The notes under the pieces: model-generated
What the model was told of the DNA's origin: nothing
Seen by the model: the letters and a program-made list of their open reading frames with translations, nothing else
Database searches by the model: none
Shown here: piece after piece, positions 11,901-38,483 of the stretch
Layout: each line of letters opens with the position of its first letter
Position numbering within the stretch: position 1 is the first letter of the stretch
Assembly (NCBI GenBank): GCA_045592585.1
Contig: JAZNVB010000026.1
Location: 7,849-71,848 of the forward strand
Reading direction: 5' to 3'
DNA: 64,000 nucleotides
Source: Clostridia bacterium
GTDB taxonomy: Bacteria; Bacillota; Clostridia; Monoglobales; Monoglobaceae
Program-made: the position numbers and the translations under genes

Positions 11901-11937
11901 ATAAGCTCTCCTTATTACTGTTGTAAGTATTATCTAC

Positions 11938-11966
11938 TTTACTTATATTTATATTTGTAGTATAAT
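11938..11966 (+). promoter_or_regulatory. Candidate sigma-A promoter (TTTACT-17-TATAAT), divergent from lysR, driving the long leader of the cofE-like gene
   Basis: TATAAT at 11961-11966 and TTTACT at 11938-11943. This would give a leader of about 385 nt containing cassette units A1 and A2. Confidence 0.45.
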
Positions 11967-11993
11967 GGCTATGATAACAAATGTCAATACATT

Positions 11994-12171
11994 GGAGGAA
12001 TTTAATGTGAATGTTTTTTCACATTATTGCCTCCGGCAGATTTGATTGCCCATGCGAAATTTTTTTCGCTTTCGCTCAAAAACGCATATGGGCGTAAAAA
12101 TCTCTTATCATTCCTTGCCATACGGATAAGAGAAATTTAATTATATTTGTGCCGACGTATGGCGGCGGAAT
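11994..12171 (+). ncRNA. Structured SD-to-SD cassette, unit A1 (first unit of a tandem dimer)
   Basis: - Opening SD: GGAGG 11994-11998.
- P1: AATGTGAA/TTCACATT.
- Anti-SD: CCTCC.
- P2: GCCC 12048-51, ATGCG 12052-56 ... CGCAT 12083-87, bulge AT, GGGC 12090-93.
- P3: TCTCTTATC/GATAAGAGA.
- Loop CCATACG pairs with tail CGTATGG.
- Ends at the next GGAG. Confidence 0.75.
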
Positions 12172-12358
12172 GGAGATTAACGTGAAAGTTCCTTTCCCGT
12201 TAAGCCTCCGGCAGATTTGATTGCCCATGCGAATTTTTTTTCGCTTTCGCTCAAAAACGCATATGGGCGTAAAAATCTCTTATCATTCCTTGCCATACGG
12301 ATAAGAGAAATTTAAAATTATATTTGTGCCGACGTATGGCGGCGGAATGGAGATTTTT
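12172..12358 (+). ncRNA. Structured SD-to-SD cassette, unit A2. Ends at the SD and ATG of the cofE-like gene.
   Basis: - P1: 12179-12201.
- CCTCC: 12205-09.
- P2: 12223-12268.
- P3: 12276-12308.
- Pseudoknot: CCATACG 12293-99 with CGTATGG 12333-39.
- SD helix: GGAATGGAGATTTTT 12344-58 is complementary to AAAAATCTC 12271-79 and CATTCC 12284-89. Confidence 0.75.
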
Positions 12359-13549
12359 ATGGAAAGAAGAGTAGGTACAGTTTCAAGAGGTATCCGTTGC
12401 CCAATTATCCGTAAGGGCGATGATATAGCTACAATCGTAGTAAACAGTGTTACAGAGGCGGCTCAGATTGAAGGGTTTGAACTTCGCGACCGTGATGTTG
12501 TTGCAGTTACAGAATCTATTGTTGCACGTGCACAGGGCAACTATGCATCTGTTGACGCTATCGCAAAGGATGTATGCACAAAGCTTGGCGGCGGCACAAT
12601 CGGTGTTATTTTTCCAATTCTCAGCCGCAATCGTTTTGCTATCTGTTTAAGAGGTATTGCAAAGGGTGCAAAAAAGATAGTTCTTATGCTCAACTATCCC
12701 AGCGACGAGGTTGGCAATGCGTTGGTATCACTTGACCAGCTTGACAATGCGGGCGTTAATCCTTATTCTGATGTTCTTACCGAAGCAAAATATCGCGAGC
12801 TTTTTGGCGAGAATCCACATCCCTTCACAGGTGTTGATTATATAAAATACTATGGTGATTTGATTAAGTCCTGCGGCGCAGAGGTTGAAATAATTTTGGC
12901 AAATGACCCCAGAGTTATCCTTAAGTACACAGATTGCGTTCTTAACTGTGACATTCACAGCCGTGTTCGCACAAAGAGAATTTTAAAGGATGCAGGCGCA
13001 AAATGCGTTGTTGGTCTTGACGAAATTCTGTCAGAGTCTGTTGACGGCAGCGGATTTAACTCAAGATATGGTTTGCTTGGCTCAAACAAGTCAACTGAAG
13101 ACACAGTTAAGCTCTTCCCCAACGAATGTTTTGATTTGGTTGAAAATATTCAGGCACAGCTTTTAGAGAAGACAGGTAAGCATATCGAGGTTATGGTTTA
13201 CGGCGATGGCGCCTTCAAAGACCCCCAGGGCAAAATCTGGGAGCTTGCTGACCCGATAGTTTCACCTGCATACACAAAAGGGCTTGAGGGTACACCTAAC
13301 GAGCTTAAGCTCAAATATCTTGCAGATAATGATTTTGCAGAACTCAAGGGCGAGGAACTGAAAAAGGCAATTGAGGGTGCAATCAAGCAAAAGGATGGCG
13401 ACCTTGTTGGCAATATGGCATCTCAGGGCACAACCCCAAGACGCCTTACCGACCTTATCGGTTCACTTTGTGACCTTACAAGCGGCTCGGGCGACAAGGG
13501 CACACCGGTTGTTCTTGTTCAGGGCTACTTTGATAATTTGACAGACTAA
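12359..13549 (+). CDS. CofE-like protein (F420-0:gamma-glutamyl ligase family, PF01996-like), function unknown here
   Basis: Starts MERRVGTVSRGIRCPIIRKGDD...VVAVTESIVARAQG, which looks like the CofE family. ATG 12359 lies 6 nt after GGAG. The track start at 12326 runs into the RNA cassette. Confidence 0.6.
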   Translation: MERRVGTVSRGIRCPIIRKGDDIATIVVNSVTEAAQIEGFELRDRDVVAVTESIVARAQGNYASVDAIAKDVCTKLGGGTIGVIFPILSRNRFAICLRGIAKGAKKIVLMLNYPSDEVGNALVSLDQLDNAGVNPYSDVLTEAKYRELFGENPHPFTGVDYIKYYGDLIKSCGAEVEIILANDPRVILKYTDCVLNCDIHSRVRTKRILKDAGAKCVVGLDEILSESVDGSGFNSRYGLLGSNKSTEDTVKLFPNECFDLVENIQAQLLEKTGKHIEVMVYGDGAFKDPQGKIWELADPIVSPAYTKGLEGTPNELKLKYLADNDFAELKGEELKKAIEGAIKQKDGDLVGNMASQGTTPRRLTDLIGSLCDLTSGSGDKGTPVVLVQGYFDNLTD

Positions 13550-23402: not shown

Positions 23403-24119
23403 ATGACAAAAGAAAAATCACAGAATTCATATCTGTATGGATTAAACAAGGGGCTTCCCATTGCACTTGGTTATCTTTCGGTATCCTTTGGGTTTGGTAT
23501 TACCGCAGTGGGAATGGGTATTAACCCCATCGGCACAATACTTATATCATTAACAAATCTGACCTCGGCAGGTCAGGTGGCAGGTATTGGTATTATTGCC
23601 GCCTGCGGAGCTATTATCGAAATGATTCTGGCGCAGCTTGTTATAAATATGCGGTACAGCCTTATGGGATTGGCTCTTACCCAAAAGCTGGATGGCAGTT
23701 TTACCACCCCTCACCGTATGATTACCTCCTTTGCAATAACCGACGAGGTCTTTGCGGTTGCGGCGGCAGAAAGGGGTCTTATTGGCAGAAGGTTTATGTA
23801 TGGTCTGATAACTCTGCCACCTGTTGGCTGGACAATGGGTACGACTTTGGGTGTGTATGCAGGGCAGATTTTGCCGCCATCGGTGTGCGCGGCGCTGGGA
23901 CTTGCCATTTACAGTATGTTTATTGCCATAATTATTCCACCTGCAAAGGCTGATAAGGGAGTTTTGTGTGCGGTGCTTATTGCCTCGGCAATGAGTTGTG
24001 CATTTTATTATATCCCGATATTTGACGGACTTTCGCAAGGCTTTTCAATTATAATATGCGCCGTTGTTGCATCGGGAATAATGGCATATATCGCACCAAA
24101 GTCAGGGGAGGAGGAGTAA
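23403..24119 (+). CDS. azlC: AzlC-family branched-chain amino acid permease component
   Basis: Typical AzlC N-terminus (GLPIALGYLSVSFGFGI) and size. Followed by azlD. Confidence 0.85.
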   Translation: MTKEKSQNSYLYGLNKGLPIALGYLSVSFGFGITAVGMGINPIGTILISLTNLTSAGQVAGIGIIAACGAIIEMILAQLVINMRYSLMGLALTQKLDGSFTTPHRMITSFAITDEVFAVAAAERGLIGRRFMYGLITLPPVGWTMGTTLGVYAGQILPPSVCAALGLAIYSMFIAIIIPPAKADKGVLCAVLIASAMSCAFYYIPIFDGLSQGFSIIICAVVASGIMAYIAPKSGEEE

Positions 24120-24278
24120 CGTGATAAACACGTTATCAATAATTAAATGCCCGTGCGATATTTTCGCCGGGGCGAAACGCACATGGGCAAATATCTATTA
24201 TACGCCTTATCTGCCCACGATATGGTGTAATATGTTTTCACGTTATGATTTGTGGGCTGAAAGGCTATGGATATTTAT
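24113..24278 (+). ncRNA. Structured SD-to-SD cassette, unit D (monomer between azlC and azlD)
   Basis: - Opening SD: GGAG 24113-16 overlaps the last azlC codons.
- P1: AACGTG 24118-23 with CACGTT 24129-34.
- P2: GCCC 24149-52, GTGCG ... CGCAC, bulge AT, GGGC 24185-88.
- P3: CCTTATC 24205-11 with GATATGG 24219-25.
- Pseudoknot: GCCCAC 24213-18 with GTGGGC 24252-57.
- SD helix: AAATATC 24189-95 with GATATTT 24270-76. Confidence 0.65.
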
Positions 24279-30481: not shown

Positions 30482-30520
30482 AGACTGTATCGCAACCGGT
30501 ACAGTCTTTACTTGCTTTTA
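30482..30520 (+). terminator. Weak terminator/attenuator hairpin after the KH gene
   Basis: AGACTGTA-10 nt-TACAGTCT followed by TTTACTTGCTTTTA. Confidence 0.4.
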
Positions 30521-30536
30521 TAGATAGGTTTTAATT

Positions 30537-30714
30537 GAGGAATTTAACGTGAAAGTTCCTTTCACGTTAAGCCTCCGGCGGATTTGATTGCCCGTGTGAG
30601 ATTTTCCTCGCGTTTGCTCGGAAACACACATGGGCGTAAAAATCTCTTATCATTCCTTGCCATGCGGATAAGAGATATTTAATTCCTATTTGTGCCGACG
30701 TATGGCGGCGGAAT
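30537..30714 (+). ncRNA. Structured SD-to-SD cassette, unit B1
   Basis: - Opening SD: GAGGA 30537-41.
- P1: perfect 10 bp, AACGTGAAAG 30546-55 with CTTTCACGTT 30559-68.
- Anti-SD: CCTCC.
- P2: GCCC 30590-93, GTGTG ... CACAC, bulge AT, GGGC 30632-35.
- P3: 30643-30675.
- Loop CCATGCG pairs with tail CGTATGG (one G-U pair). Confidence 0.75.
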
Positions 30715-30902
30715 GGAGATTAACGTGAAAGTTCCTTTCCCGTTAAGCCTCCGGCGGATTTGATTGCCCGTGTGAGATTTTCCTCGCGTTTGCTCGGAAA
30801 CACACATAGGCGTAAAAATCTCTTATCATTCCTTGCCATACGGATAAGAGATATTTAAGTCCTATTTGTGCCGACGTATGGCGGCGGAATGGAGATTTTT
30901 AT
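30715..30902 (+). ncRNA. Structured SD-to-SD cassette, unit B2. Ends at the rimM SD and ATG.
   Basis: Same architecture as A2, and near-identical to it outside P2. A G-to-A change at 30808 weakens P2a (AGGC instead of GGGC). GGAG 30891-94 lies 8 nt before ATG 30903. Confidence 0.75.
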
Positions 30903-31400
30903 ATGAAAAATAATCTTGAAATTGGACAAATAGTGAATACCCACGGTCTTCGGGGCGACCTTAAGGTTATGCCATGGTGCGACGATCCCGAAATTTTTGA
31001 CGAGCTGGCGTATGTTATTATAGATGGCGAAGAATATGATATCGAAAAATCCCGGATGCAAAAGAATATGGTTCTTCTGAAACTTGCAGGGATAGACCAT
31101 ATCAATGAAGCCGAGAAATACCGCAACAAGGTGCTTACCATTCCCCGTGAGGAATTGGGTGAACTTCCTGAGGGCACCTATTACATCTGCGACCTTCTGG
31201 GTTGCGGTGTAACAACAGATCAGGGCAGAGAATTGGGCAAAATTTGTGATATAATCAAGACGGGCAGCAATGATGTTTATGTGGTTGAGGATGATGCCGG
31301 CAATCAGGTGCTAATCCCTGTAATTGATGAAGTTGTTTTGTCTGTTGACATTGATGAAAAGAAAATTGTTATTAAGCCCTTAAAAGGATTGATTGACTGA
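30903..31400 (+). CDS. rimM: Ribosome maturation factor RimM
   Basis: IGQIVNTHGLRGDLKV and a PRC-barrel C-terminus. Position before trmD. Confidence 0.92.
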   Translation: MKNNLEIGQIVNTHGLRGDLKVMPWCDDPEIFDELAYVIIDGEEYDIEKSRMQKNMVLLKLAGIDHINEAEKYRNKVLTIPREELGELPEGTYYICDLLGCGVTTDQGRELGKICDIIKTGSNDVYVVEDDAGNQVLIPVIDEVVLSVDIDEKKIVIKPLKGLID

Positions 31401-36700: not shown

Positions 36701-37933
36701 ATGAGGGTAAAATCTCCGTTTAGACTGTTTGTTGCAATACTTGTTTTACTTATAGTGCTGTATGTGGGCTTTCAGGGGGCGGTTTCGCTTATTACGGGAC
36801 AGCCTATGAAGTTTGGGTTCAGTTCGTGGACGTCCCATGGCGAGCAGGTGCAGGATTTTGTTGTTGCCGGTGTTGATGAGGAAGGCTATCGAACAGACCT
36901 GATACTCTTTTGCAGATATAATATGGCAGATGACTCCATAAATGTTTTGCAAATTCCACGTGATACCAGAATTGAAAATGAAAGAAATGATAAAAAAATC
37001 AACTCGGCTTACGGAAGCCCTGAAAAAGAACAGACTCTATTTGATGAGATAGAGAGTGTTATAGGAATCCGTCCCGAAAAATCGGTAATTGTAAGCTTTA
37101 AAGCATTTCGTGAAATAATAGATGCAATCGGCGGTGTTGAAATTGATGTTCCAATAAGAATGTACTATCACGACCCCTTTCAAAATCTGAATATTGACTT
37201 ATATCCGGGCGTACAGTTGCTGGATGGAAAACGTGCCGAGATGTTTATGAGGTTTCGCCAGAATGATGATGGCAGTGGCTATCCAAACGGCGATATTGAC
37301 CGCATAGCAGCGCAAAAAGTCTTTTATCAGGCGGCGTTCAGCAAGCTCCTCAGCGGTAGTACAATCCTTAAGGCACCTAAAATTATAGGTGTTTTGACTC
37401 AAAATATAAAAACAGATTTCACGGTAGGTGAAATGGCGAACTATATGGGCAGACTCCCCCGATTCAGTATGGACAAGGTTAAAATTCATACACTTCCTGG
37501 CGAGGGTGGTTACGATAACAATGGCGTTTCGTACTTTTTCCATGACAAAGAAGCGACTATGACGTTAATAAAAGAGCACTTCACTCCGCAAGAGGGTGTG
37601 GTGGAGAGCGAAATAAAGGGTTCGTTAAAAAATCGCTTTATTAAGGTTCGGATTATTGATGCAACAGGTCTTGACCCTGAAACTGCCGATATAATGGCGG
37701 TGGTTAAGAAAACCCTTACCGACTGTGGCTTTAATGTTGTTGCAACCGAGAGGAGTGACAGAATTTCAGACACCTCGGTGATAATAAGCCACAACAAAAA
37801 ACGTGCAGCGGTTGATGTTCAAAAGGTTTACCAGAGTGTTCCTGTCAGAGACAGCATTGAGGAACACCTTACTGACGATGAGGGTAAAAAGGCAGATGTT
37901 ACTATCAAAATGGGTACAGATTTTGTGTTTTAA
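36701..37933 (+). CDS. LCP (LytR-CpsA-Psr) family protein with a LytR_C-like tail
   Basis: N-terminal TM segment, TDLILFCRYN...VLQIPRDT, and a C-terminal domain. Confidence 0.8.
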   Translation: MRVKSPFRLFVAILVLLIVLYVGFQGAVSLITGQPMKFGFSSWTSHGEQVQDFVVAGVDEEGYRTDLILFCRYNMADDSINVLQIPRDTRIENERNDKKINSAYGSPEKEQTLFDEIESVIGIRPEKSVIVSFKAFREIIDAIGGVEIDVPIRMYYHDPFQNLNIDLYPGVQLLDGKRAEMFMRFRQNDDGSGYPNGDIDRIAAQKVFYQAAFSKLLSGSTILKAPKIIGVLTQNIKTDFTVGEMANYMGRLPRFSMDKVKIHTLPGEGGYDNNGVSYFFHDKEATMTLIKEHFTPQEGVVESEIKGSLKNRFIKVRIIDATGLDPETADIMAVVKKTLTDCGFNVVATERSDRISDTSVIISHNKKRAAVDVQKVYQSVPVRDSIEEHLTDDEGKKADVTIKMGTDFVF

Positions 37934-37939
37934 AGGATA

Positions 37940-38120
37940 GGAGATATAACGTGAAAAATCACGTTAATCACTATATTTAAATTGCACCGTCGAAATTTTC
38001 GCACAAAGTGCGAAACGACGATGTGCGTAATCTCCATTTCACGTCTTATCTCGCCCACGGATAAGAGACAGGGGATTTAAAATATAATCATTTGTGGGCG
38101 GAAAGACTATGGAGATTAAT
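37940..38120 (+). ncRNA. Structured SD-to-SD cassette, unit C (monomer upstream of rsfS)
   Basis: - Opening SD: GGAGAT 37940-45.
- P1: AACGTGA 37948-54 with TCACGTT 37959-65.
- P2: GCAC 37984-87, CGTCG 37988-92, TTTCGCAC/GTGCGAAA, CGACG 38016-20, bulge AT, GTGC 38023-26.
- P3: TCTTATC 38044-50 with GATAAGA 38060-66.
- Pseudoknot: CGCCCAC 38052-58 with GTGGGCG 38094-100.
- SD helix: TAATCTCCAT 38028-37 with ATGGAGATTA 38109-18. Confidence 0.75.
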
Positions 38121-38483
38121 ATGAGTTGTGAAAATAATTATGTAAATACGGCGGTTAAAGCAATAGACAGCAAAAAAGGCAAGGAGATAACTGTTCTCAG
38201 CCTTAGCGAGCTTACCACATTGACAAGTTATTTTGTTATTGCAACCGGCGGCTCAAACAAAAATGTTCAGGCAATCTGTGACGAGGTTGAGGAAAAGATG
38301 CGTGATGCCGGGGCAAAGCTCTGGAACAAAGAGGGCTATGACAGCGGCGAATGGATACTGCTTAACTATGATGATGTTATGGTGCATATCTTCCAAAGTG
38401 AAACCCGCGAATTTTACAAGCTTGAACACATCTGGAAGGATGCGCCCTCAGTGGATGTTGATGATTTAATTCAGGAAGACTAA
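38121..38483 (+). CDS. rsfS: Ribosome silencing factor RsfS
   Basis: The pattern LSLSELTTLTSYFVIATGGSNKNVQAI...YDDVMVHIF is typical of RsfS. ATG 38121 lies 6 nt after GGAG. The track start at 38094 lies inside the cassette. Confidence 0.9.
   Translation: MSCENNYVNTAVKAIDSKKGKEITVLSLSELTTLTSYFVIATGGSNKNVQAICDEVEEKMRDAGAKLWNKEGYDSGEWILLNYDDVMVHIFQSETREFYKLEHIWKDAPSVDVDDLIQED

Follow-up and report, generated by a model that had tools for sequence, protein, structure and literature searches.

A multi-copy structured cassette between the native Shine–Dalgarno sequence and the start codon of rsfS in a Clostridia bacterium

Introduction

Why should the Shine–Dalgarno (SD) sequence of rsfS, the gene for ribosomal silencing factor, be buried in a perfect 10-bp helix of its own leader? 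The question is raised by a stretch of 64,000 nucleotides from a Clostridia bacterium (Monoglobaceae; GenBank assembly GCA_045592585.1, contig JAZNVB010000026.1, positions 7,849 to 71,848 of the forward strand), hereafter the window, in which the interval 37940-38120, called unit C, separates an LCP-family open reading frame (ORF) from an RsfS-domain ORF. A first-pass annotation had described the helix, regarded unit C as a monomeric copy of a cassette also present as units A, B and D, and proposed a riboswitch-like sensor tied to rsfS, rimM and translation status. The analysis presented here identifies the interval as one C-type copy of a multi-copy cassette that some strains and species of uncultured Clostridia from gut and rumen have and others lack, and that is best read as a mobile, non-autonomous element swapping the native spacer between SD and AUG for its own masked SD.

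Results

A perfect helix encloses the rsfS SD sequence

The LCP-family ORF ends at 37933 and the RsfS-domain ORF begins with the ATG at 38121. Within the intervening unit (Table 1), TAATCTCCAT is complementary at 10 of 10 positions to ATGGAGATTA, which holds the rsfS SD GGAG, and the ATG follows this SD 6 nt downstream. The position and sequence of this anti-SD:SD helix, P0, are exactly as first annotated. P0 is part of the minimum free energy (MFE) fold of unit C (-67.5 kcal/mol, z = -7.3 relative to shuffles), and its duplex has a predicted energy of -11.6 kcal/mol, as against about -6.4 kcal/mol for the SD with a 16S-like tail. In the nested-fold ensemble the probability that the SD is unpaired is 0-0.008 in units C, D, A2 and B2 (about 0 for unit C); these nested-fold energies leave the pseudoknot described below out of account. 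That the helix is a functionless chance complementarity in an AT-rich spacer can practically be dismissed. A perfect 10-nt inverted repeat of any kind does arise somewhere in 1.5% of unit C shuffles, but only 2e-4 perfect matches are expected for this SD-containing 10-mer within the 175 nt upstream at the local base composition, and the covariation described below refutes chance, since compensatory changes keep the pairing in dozens of copies from different genomes.

Copies of the cassette share one architecture

Four direct repeats of 176 nt, arranged as two tandem pairs, occur in the window, and a search with an nhmmer profile of relatives gives a total of six copies there (A1, A2, D, B1, B2 and C), so that C is indeed a single copy of the cassette that makes up A, B and D. 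The cassette is non-coding and about 175-190 nt long. Its architecture was agreed by a mutual-information scan of the alignment, by RNAalifold and by explicit pair counts. The 5' half holds P1, a long hairpin (AACGUGAAAG/CUUUCACGUU) with covariation at alignment columns 23-49 in the mutual-information scan and at pairs 18:36 and 19:35 in RNAalifold, followed by P2, which consists of 4 bp, an AU bulge, 5 bp and an inner hairpin with a U-rich and an A-rich arm; pairs 68:115, 69:114, 71:110 and 75:106 of P2 are each changed on both sides in 7-11 sequences. Hairpin P3 (UCUCUUAUC/GAUAAGAGA) covaries in the C type between CTTATC/GATAAG and CTTGTC/GACAAG. Its loop pairs with the 3' tail to form helix S2, the tail segment being the loop of a small hairpin, P4, in the A/B type. 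S2 covaries at 7 of 8 pairs over the 108 A/B-type copies (CCAUAC/GUAUGG, CCCUGC/GCAGGG, CUCUGC/GCAGAG, CUGUGC/GCACAG and others), and RNAalifold chose the P3/P4 fold unaided. In unit C, P3 and S2 (CGCCCAC with GUGGGCG) together make an H-type pseudoknot.

A further helix reaches outside the cassette. In 65 of 70 units, the MFE fold pairs the conserved motif CCUCC just after P1 with an SD-like purine tract of the 5' flank, and because of the empty-site comparisons given below this tract can be recognized as the host gene's original SD. The pseudoknot, this second masking helix over the orphaned native SD and the insertion polymorphism had no place in the first-pass annotation.

Rfam 15 gives no match at the gathering threshold over the whole window, chance-level matches only on unit C (E about 3) and none at E <= 10 on B1B2, and a limited search of the full-text literature did not find the cassette described. 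It is apparently new, a claim that rests mainly on the Rfam result. With a length of about 180 nt, a pseudoknot, more than 140 examples and no Rfam family, the cassette is a well-supported candidate for a new structured RNA.

Compensatory changes keep the SD paired

In the A/B type (108 modules), NNNAAUCUC pairs with GAGAUUNNN, and the helix can be extended into the A and U of AUG. Three spacer positions switch jointly with their partners (AAAAAUCUC/GAGAUUUUU, AAUAAUCUC/GAGAUUAUU and UUUUAAUCUC/GAGAUUAAAA): pair 19:118 of P0 is UA in 53 copies and AU in 43, and pairs 17:120 and 18:119 show 9 and 12 double changes, respectively, again by AU/UA switching. Over the extended hairpin, 93.3% of cells are paired, compared with 86.5% in column shuffles and 41-49% in slid controls, and 185 double-change cells are observed where 64 are expected. 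Because the aligned sequences share ancestry, comparison with shuffles exaggerates significance, and more weight belongs to the slid controls and to the several independent states of the SD core.

These states are seen in the C type, where all 17 intact copies have an anti-SD:SD helix of 8-11 bp. The SD core is GGAG with CUCC in unit C and at loci L130, L139 and L142-144, GGAA with UUCC at L131, L132, L134, L136-138, L141 and L149, and GGAU with AUCC or AUCU at L140 and in unit D of the window. The core thus varies together with a matching anti-SD, so the pairing is kept even at reduced SD strength. On the evidence of the aligned sequences, P0 is maintained by compensatory change and is under selection. 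The equivalent pairings that had been claimed for A2 and B2 (AAAAATCTC plus CATTCC with GGAATG-GAGATTTTT) and for D (AAATATC with GATATTT, extending to AAAUAUCUAU:AUGGAUAUUU with one G.U pair) are present, and the proposal that SD occlusion is a conserved, covarying feature extends to the whole repeat family, in its A/B and C types alike.

The two types differ in how P0 relates to P3, as the first-pass annotation had also deduced. The anti-SD and the 5' arm of P3 share UCUC in the A/B type, and the two helices are therefore mutually exclusive, whereas the C-type anti-SD lies 5' of P3 without overlap and P0 and P3 are both able to form. For the 3' module of B2, the extended SD-masked hairpin is predicted at -33.9 kcal/mol and the P3-enforced fold at -25.8 kcal/mol, loop–loop energy excluded. 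In the MFE fold of the B1B2 tandem (window 30527-30920), the B1 anti-SD pairs with the B2 SD strand and encloses everything between them, so that partners can be exchanged between tandem units.

With about 23 bp, the extended hairpin would also make a plausible RNase III substrate, and the multi-copy, tandem and gene-independent spread of the cassette, with its highly conserved pseudoknotted core, is typical of small self-cleaving ribozymes. Such a ribozyme or RNase III site could cut the polycistronic mRNA just upstream of a gene, insulating it and unmasking its SD. We consider this very improbable, as no Rfam 15 ribozyme matches even at E <= 10 and the cassette has no sequence feature specific to catalysis.

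Insertion between the native SD and the start codon

Comparison with relatives reveals empty sites at three loci. Around rsfS, relatives with RsfS 93, 86, 80 and 76% identical keep the gene order HD-LCP-rsfS-leuS with an LCP-rsfS gap of 10-27 nt and no element, and unit C is present in five metagenome contigs with identical RsfS. The empty site reads TATAGGAGAAATAATAATG; in the filled site ATAGGAGA persists at the 5' junction, its distance to the LCP stop unchanged. For rimM, relatives at 92, 91 and 85% identity, and also a contig with a 100% identical RimM, have a spacer of 77-107 nt without the element. The exact empty site, ...TTGAGGAATTTTATATG (junction GAGGAATTTTATATG), corresponds to a filled site that runs from ...TTGAGGAATTT (junction GAGGAATTT) into AACGTG, through two units, to GGAGATTTT and then TATATG; the only ambiguity falls within the T run. 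At azlD, three relatives have azlC ending in GAGGAGGAT-TAA with the azlD ATG 2-5 nt on, whereas the window has GAGGAGGAG and then the cassette, whose TAACGTG supplies the azlC stop codon, the TAA at 24117-24119. Stop codons in two frames lie within the first 9 nt of the cassette, so that an upstream ORF running through the native SD can be terminated.

Since the cassette is absent at the same loci in relatives, all three are lineage- or strain-specific insertions between native SD and ATG, and rsfS is a landing place of a mobile cassette rather than part of a conserved circuit. The 5' junction lies 0-4 nt past the native SD (GGAG/GAGG) at the three sites, with varying offset, and part of the native spacer seems to have been replaced by the cassette. 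At the other end, a start codon follows GGAGATT within a few nucleotides in 123 of 126 copies with an intact 3' end; it belongs to the downstream gene or, in tandem arrays, is the GTG of the next unit's P1. The replacement SD (GGAG, sometimes GGAA or GGAU) stands 5-8 nt ahead of AUG.

Neither a target-site duplication, in the empty versus filled comparisons at rsfS, rimM and azlD, nor terminal inverted repeats were found, the 5' end (TAACGTGAAAG) and the 3' end (GGAATGGAGATTNNN) not being inverted copies. No transposase occurs next to the copies examined or among the ORFs upstream of eight 3'-only copies. An autonomous parent element was considered and rejected, the ORFs upstream of 3'-only copies being ordinary genes or absent. 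The end hairpins are not alike either, P1 (AACGTGAAAG/CTTTCACGTT) and P3 (TCTCTTATC/GATAAGAGA) being unrelated in sequence.

These junctions bear on a different role for the same helices, as structures of single-stranded DNA used for mobilization by a trans-acting enzyme of the HUH/Y1 type (IS200/IS605- or RAYT-like) or of another kind. CCTCC would then be the left-end guide for a GGAGG target and AATCTCC the right-end guide for the terminal GGAGATT; the SD-like right end would mimic the target and give rise to tandem arrays, and SD masking on the mRNA would be a tolerated by-product. The cassette resembles IS200/IS605 ends, their MITE-like derivatives (PATEs) and REP-RAYT systems in some respects: insertion is seamless and without target duplication, it is strand-specific, and an internal 'guide' pairs with a terminal or target sequence. 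The insertion points 0-4 nt after the native SD, the exact joining of tandem units at the SD-like right end, a 3'-end layout of guide, hairpin and terminal site like that of the IS608 right end, the freedom of the SD core to weaken to GGAA or GGAT provided pairing persists, presence or absence at the strain level and the lack of a G.U excess over A.C in S2 and P0 all fit such a role. We nevertheless regard it as possible but doubtful. Besides the missing transposase and the dissimilar end hairpins, the left-end guide lies 3' of its hairpin and not 5', and helices of 9-11 bp plus a pseudoknot far exceed the 4-nt guide interactions of IS200/IS605. A spacing to the ATG that hardly varies, together with covariation in the 3 nt directly ahead of AUG, points to selection on translation, and 3'-only copies remain near consensus (0.82, compared with 0.88 for full copies, values subject to search-pattern bias). 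A role in DNA and masking on the mRNA are not mutually exclusive.

Distribution and downstream genes

A 3'-half pattern finds at least 120 loci in a species-representative genome collection. Among the matches listed, its carriers are all uncultured Clostridia: Oscillospiraceae (among them Ructibacterium and Congzhengia), Monoglobaceae and rumen metagenome-assembled genomes (MAGs) named 'Ruminococcus sp.'. A C/D-type 3'-tail pattern, which fixed CTATGGA only, adds 20 loci in metagenomes. Plasmid and phage collections give no blastn match, and 2.9 M viral contigs give one match of 73-nt span, judged chance-like from that span and not inspected. Copies without P2, or without the whole 5' half, occur. 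In flanks around copies in other genomes, 823 kb hold 3 extra independent sites; the window has four cassette sites in 64 kb, and this genome or region is seemingly cassette-rich.

The 111 scorable downstream proteins match 191 Pfam families with a maximum recurrence of 4, reached by the generic Epimerase family, and the genes include tgt, gatB, aroC, fba, rnfD, GTPases, AraC regulators and transporters. This is the pattern neither of a metabolite riboswitch nor of a translation-specific regulator, and the sensor tied to rsfS, rimM and translation status that was first proposed is not borne out. Among the 111 copies, only five species pairs share the cassette upstream of orthologous genes. In three of these pairs the cassette is 94, 77 and 98% identical, compared with 53, 39 and 80% at 4-fold sites (L085/L112, L009/L032 and L008/L011, respectively).

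Several candidate functions within the units were tried and rejected. A leader peptide or MIRU-like ORF starting at the P1 GTG is not general, the GTG being absent in 14 of 70 units, and there is no conserved upstream ORF (ORF lengths of 2-61 codons, with a 12-codon frame in 29 of 56 only). Promoters and terminators within the units do not rise above shuffle expectation.

A sensor of a global signal (alarmone, Mg2+, polyamine or temperature) might still be carried on a movable cassette, with the pseudoknotted 3' domain, with or without P1 and P2, as sensor and P0 as platform. The cassette combines an alternative-pairing platform with a covarying structured domain, as a riboswitch does; its conserved unpaired nucleotides and covarying pseudoknot are aptamer-like, the A/B folds exclude one another, conservation is far above that of neutral sites, and some riboswitches also occur in tandem. 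It resembles translational riboswitches with the SD in a pseudoknot (preQ1-II, SAM-II/V, guanidine-III) and thermometers (ROSE, FourU) in the link between an SD helix and a pseudoknotted or alternative fold and in its tandem units. The SD lies in an AU-rich helix; the element, however, is about 180 nt long and pseudoknotted, and its genes are unrelated to temperature. Unlike these systems, it has no coherent regulon, known ligand or Rfam match and shows repeat-like copy number and insertion polymorphism. Strains gain and lose copies, relatives whose proteins are 76-100% identical lack them, some copies do without P1 and P2, and the C-type helices do not compete. Such a sensor is, in our view, improbable.

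Discussion

Relation to known repeats and leaders

The cassette shares with pneumococcal BOX, RUP and SPRITE, with ERIC and with REP/BIME a short, non-coding, multi-copy and intergenic nature, presumptive co-transcription with neighbouring genes, a modular build with modules missing in some copies, stable predicted structures and variability between strains. Repeats of this kind are treated in PMC3049150. Unlike all of these, the cassette sits immediately upstream of the start codon and supplies the SD, has a covarying pseudoknot and an SD-masking helix, lacks terminal inverted repeats and shows no sequence similarity to them. The mycobacterial MIRUs (Supply et al. 1997) are reported to be tandem units in the intergenic regions of operons, oriented with the genes and containing translation signals of the flanking genes. 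These tandem intergenic units, their gene orientation and the translation signals inside the repeat recur in the cassette. MIRUs differ in having small ORFs that overlap the flanking stop and start codons (translational coupling), whereas the cassette has no conserved upstream ORF, is folded in an RNA-like manner and has its SD masked.

A masked SD is also found in the IS200 tnpA leader, whose structure is an SD-sequestering stem-loop. There the masked SD serves the transposase, while that of the cassette serves a host gene. Secondary structure in the mRNA leader of IS200 suppresses tnpA expression (PMC4513863).

Proposed mode of action

We consider it somewhat probable that the cassette acts on the mRNA, where both the orphaned SD and its own would be masked and translation would be throttled or conditional, the A/B type being bistable and the C type masked by default. 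P0 would mask the replacement SD, in A/B also the A and U of AUG, and at the base of P1 the CCUCC of the element would cover the orphaned native SD; any gene downstream could thereby have its translation throttled or made conditional. In the A/B type, P3 would be transcribed first and locked to P4 by the loop–loop helix S2, giving an SD-free fold, and refolding to the extended hairpin would mask the SD and render the unit bistable. In the C type, including the rsfS copy, P0 and P3/S2 would coexist, leaving the SD masked by default and in need of an opener. Candidate openers are a ribosome bound in standby, a helicase, processing by an RNase III-type enzyme, temperature and a factor that binds the pseudoknot domain.

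Several considerations weigh against action on the mRNA or narrow the evidence for it. In S2 (23 and 25) and P0b (18 and 17), G.U mismatches are about as common as A.C mismatches, which means that there is no RNA-specific signature there (the counts are 10 and 2 in P3, and 12 and 3 in P4), and the helices might instead be important as single-stranded DNA. For housekeeping genes (rimM-trmD, gatB, tgt, aroC), dependence on a weak and strongly masked 4-nt SD would seem expensive if unmasking were not efficient. The patterns used in both collection scans preset parts of the 3' module; the conservation of GATAAGAG, ATTTGTG, ATGGAGAT and the C-type tail therefore reflects ascertainment, and the A/B set is uninformative on P3 pairing. 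The high conservation of the cassette could stem from purifying selection, from homogenization between copies or from parallel insertion, and the carriers are MAGs or metagenome contigs throughout.

If masking on the mRNA does occur, the repeat family would swap the translation-initiation region of arbitrary genes, housekeeping ones included, for a standard folded module whose SD selection keeps base-paired: a natural portable 'RBS cassette', and a mobile element tolerated at a gene's most sensitive few nucleotides. Abundant uncultured gut and rumen Clostridia would then differ between strains in protein output in a way invisible to gene-content comparison, and the modularity and bistable design of the cassette could serve synthetic biology. 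A bolder proposal, which we think unlikely, is a self-propagating translational control module that homes to SDs via its 16S-like CCUCC, silences the displaced SD and installs a masked one under a pseudoknotted sensor or switch. All carrier genes of a genome would together be a transposable post-transcriptional regulon, governed by a single common signal or factor and rewired between strains by insertion and seamless loss.

Table 1. Positions in the window of unit C, its structural parts and the other copies of the cassette (neighbouring genes identified by Pfam)
Feature	Position	Strand	Evidence or remark
Native (orphaned) rsfS SD, GGAG	37940..37943	+	5' junction of unit C; empty-site comparison
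P1 hairpin, unit C, TAACGTGA / TCACGTTA	37947..37966	+	Inverted repeat and MFE fold; family covariation
P2, unit C, GCAC+CGTCG ... CGACG+AT bulge+GTGC, inner hairpin TTTCGCAC/GTGCGAAA	37984..38026	+	MFE fold, inverted repeat, family covariation
Anti-SD strand of P0, TAATCTCCAT	38028..38037	+	MFE fold; covaries with SD strand in 17 C-type copies
P3 hairpin, TCTTATC / GATAAGA	38044..38066	+	Inverted repeat; loop CGCCCAC (38052-38058) is the pseudoknot 5' strand
Pseudoknot S2 3' strand, GTGGGCG	38094..38100	+	Pairs with P3 loop 38052-38058
SD strand of P0, ATGGAGATTA	38109..38118	+	Replacement SD GGAG at 38111-38114; MFE fold, ensemble probabilities
rsfS (ribosomal silencing factor), downstream of unit C	38121..38483	+	Pfam PF02410, E = 1.7e-33
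Units A1, A2 (tandem)	11995..12361	+	Upstream of F420-ligase-like gene (ATG 12359)
A2 anti-SD	12271-12279 plus 12284-12289	+	
A2 SD strand	12344-12358	+	
Unit D	24110..24278	+	Between azlC and azlD (ATG 24279)
Unit D anti-SD	24189-24198	+	
Unit D SD strand	24267-24276	+	SD is GGAU
Units B1, B2 (tandem)	30538..30902	+	Between KH-domain gene and rimM (ATG 30903; rimM-trmD)
B2 anti-SD	30814-30822 plus 30827-30832	+	
B2 SD strand	30886-30900	+	

Additional observations

Variant copies are found outside the window. Three C-type copies on JAAGKN01 contigs (L133:5316-5434, L135:2400-2606 and L148:3400-3610) have lost the SD mask: a second small repeat, about 110 nt long and with hairpins of its own (for example aaaaacaattaccaattgttttt), is nested in the cassette and breaks up or takes the place of the anti-SD. 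In another C-type copy (L145:1331-1449), about 80 nt are inserted between P3 and the 3' tail. The apical loop of P1 is UUC or its complement GAA depending on the copy (for example L008:4042-4237, L003:4038-4234 and L050:1348-1545), an alternation that looks like inversion of the palindromic hairpin tip. The 5'-only nhmmer matches are mostly reverse-strand readings of the palindromic P1.

A promoter-like TTGTAA ... TATAAT lies at 11925-11975 of the window, just upstream of A1 and beside a divergent LysR-family gene; the A1A2 tandem is therefore seemingly in a 5' untranslated region, with B, C and D inside operons. A hairpin AGACTGTATCGCAACCGGTACAGTCT followed by TTT (30485-30512), located in the native spacer that separates the KH-domain gene from rimM, is kept in the cassette-free relatives L150-L153; it may serve the rpsP-rimM-trmD operon as an internal attenuator or terminator. 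In the close relative GCA_045586925.1 (L126), leuS (L126:1888-3363) is split into two ORFs of 145 and 651 aa, probably by a frameshift or an assembly error.

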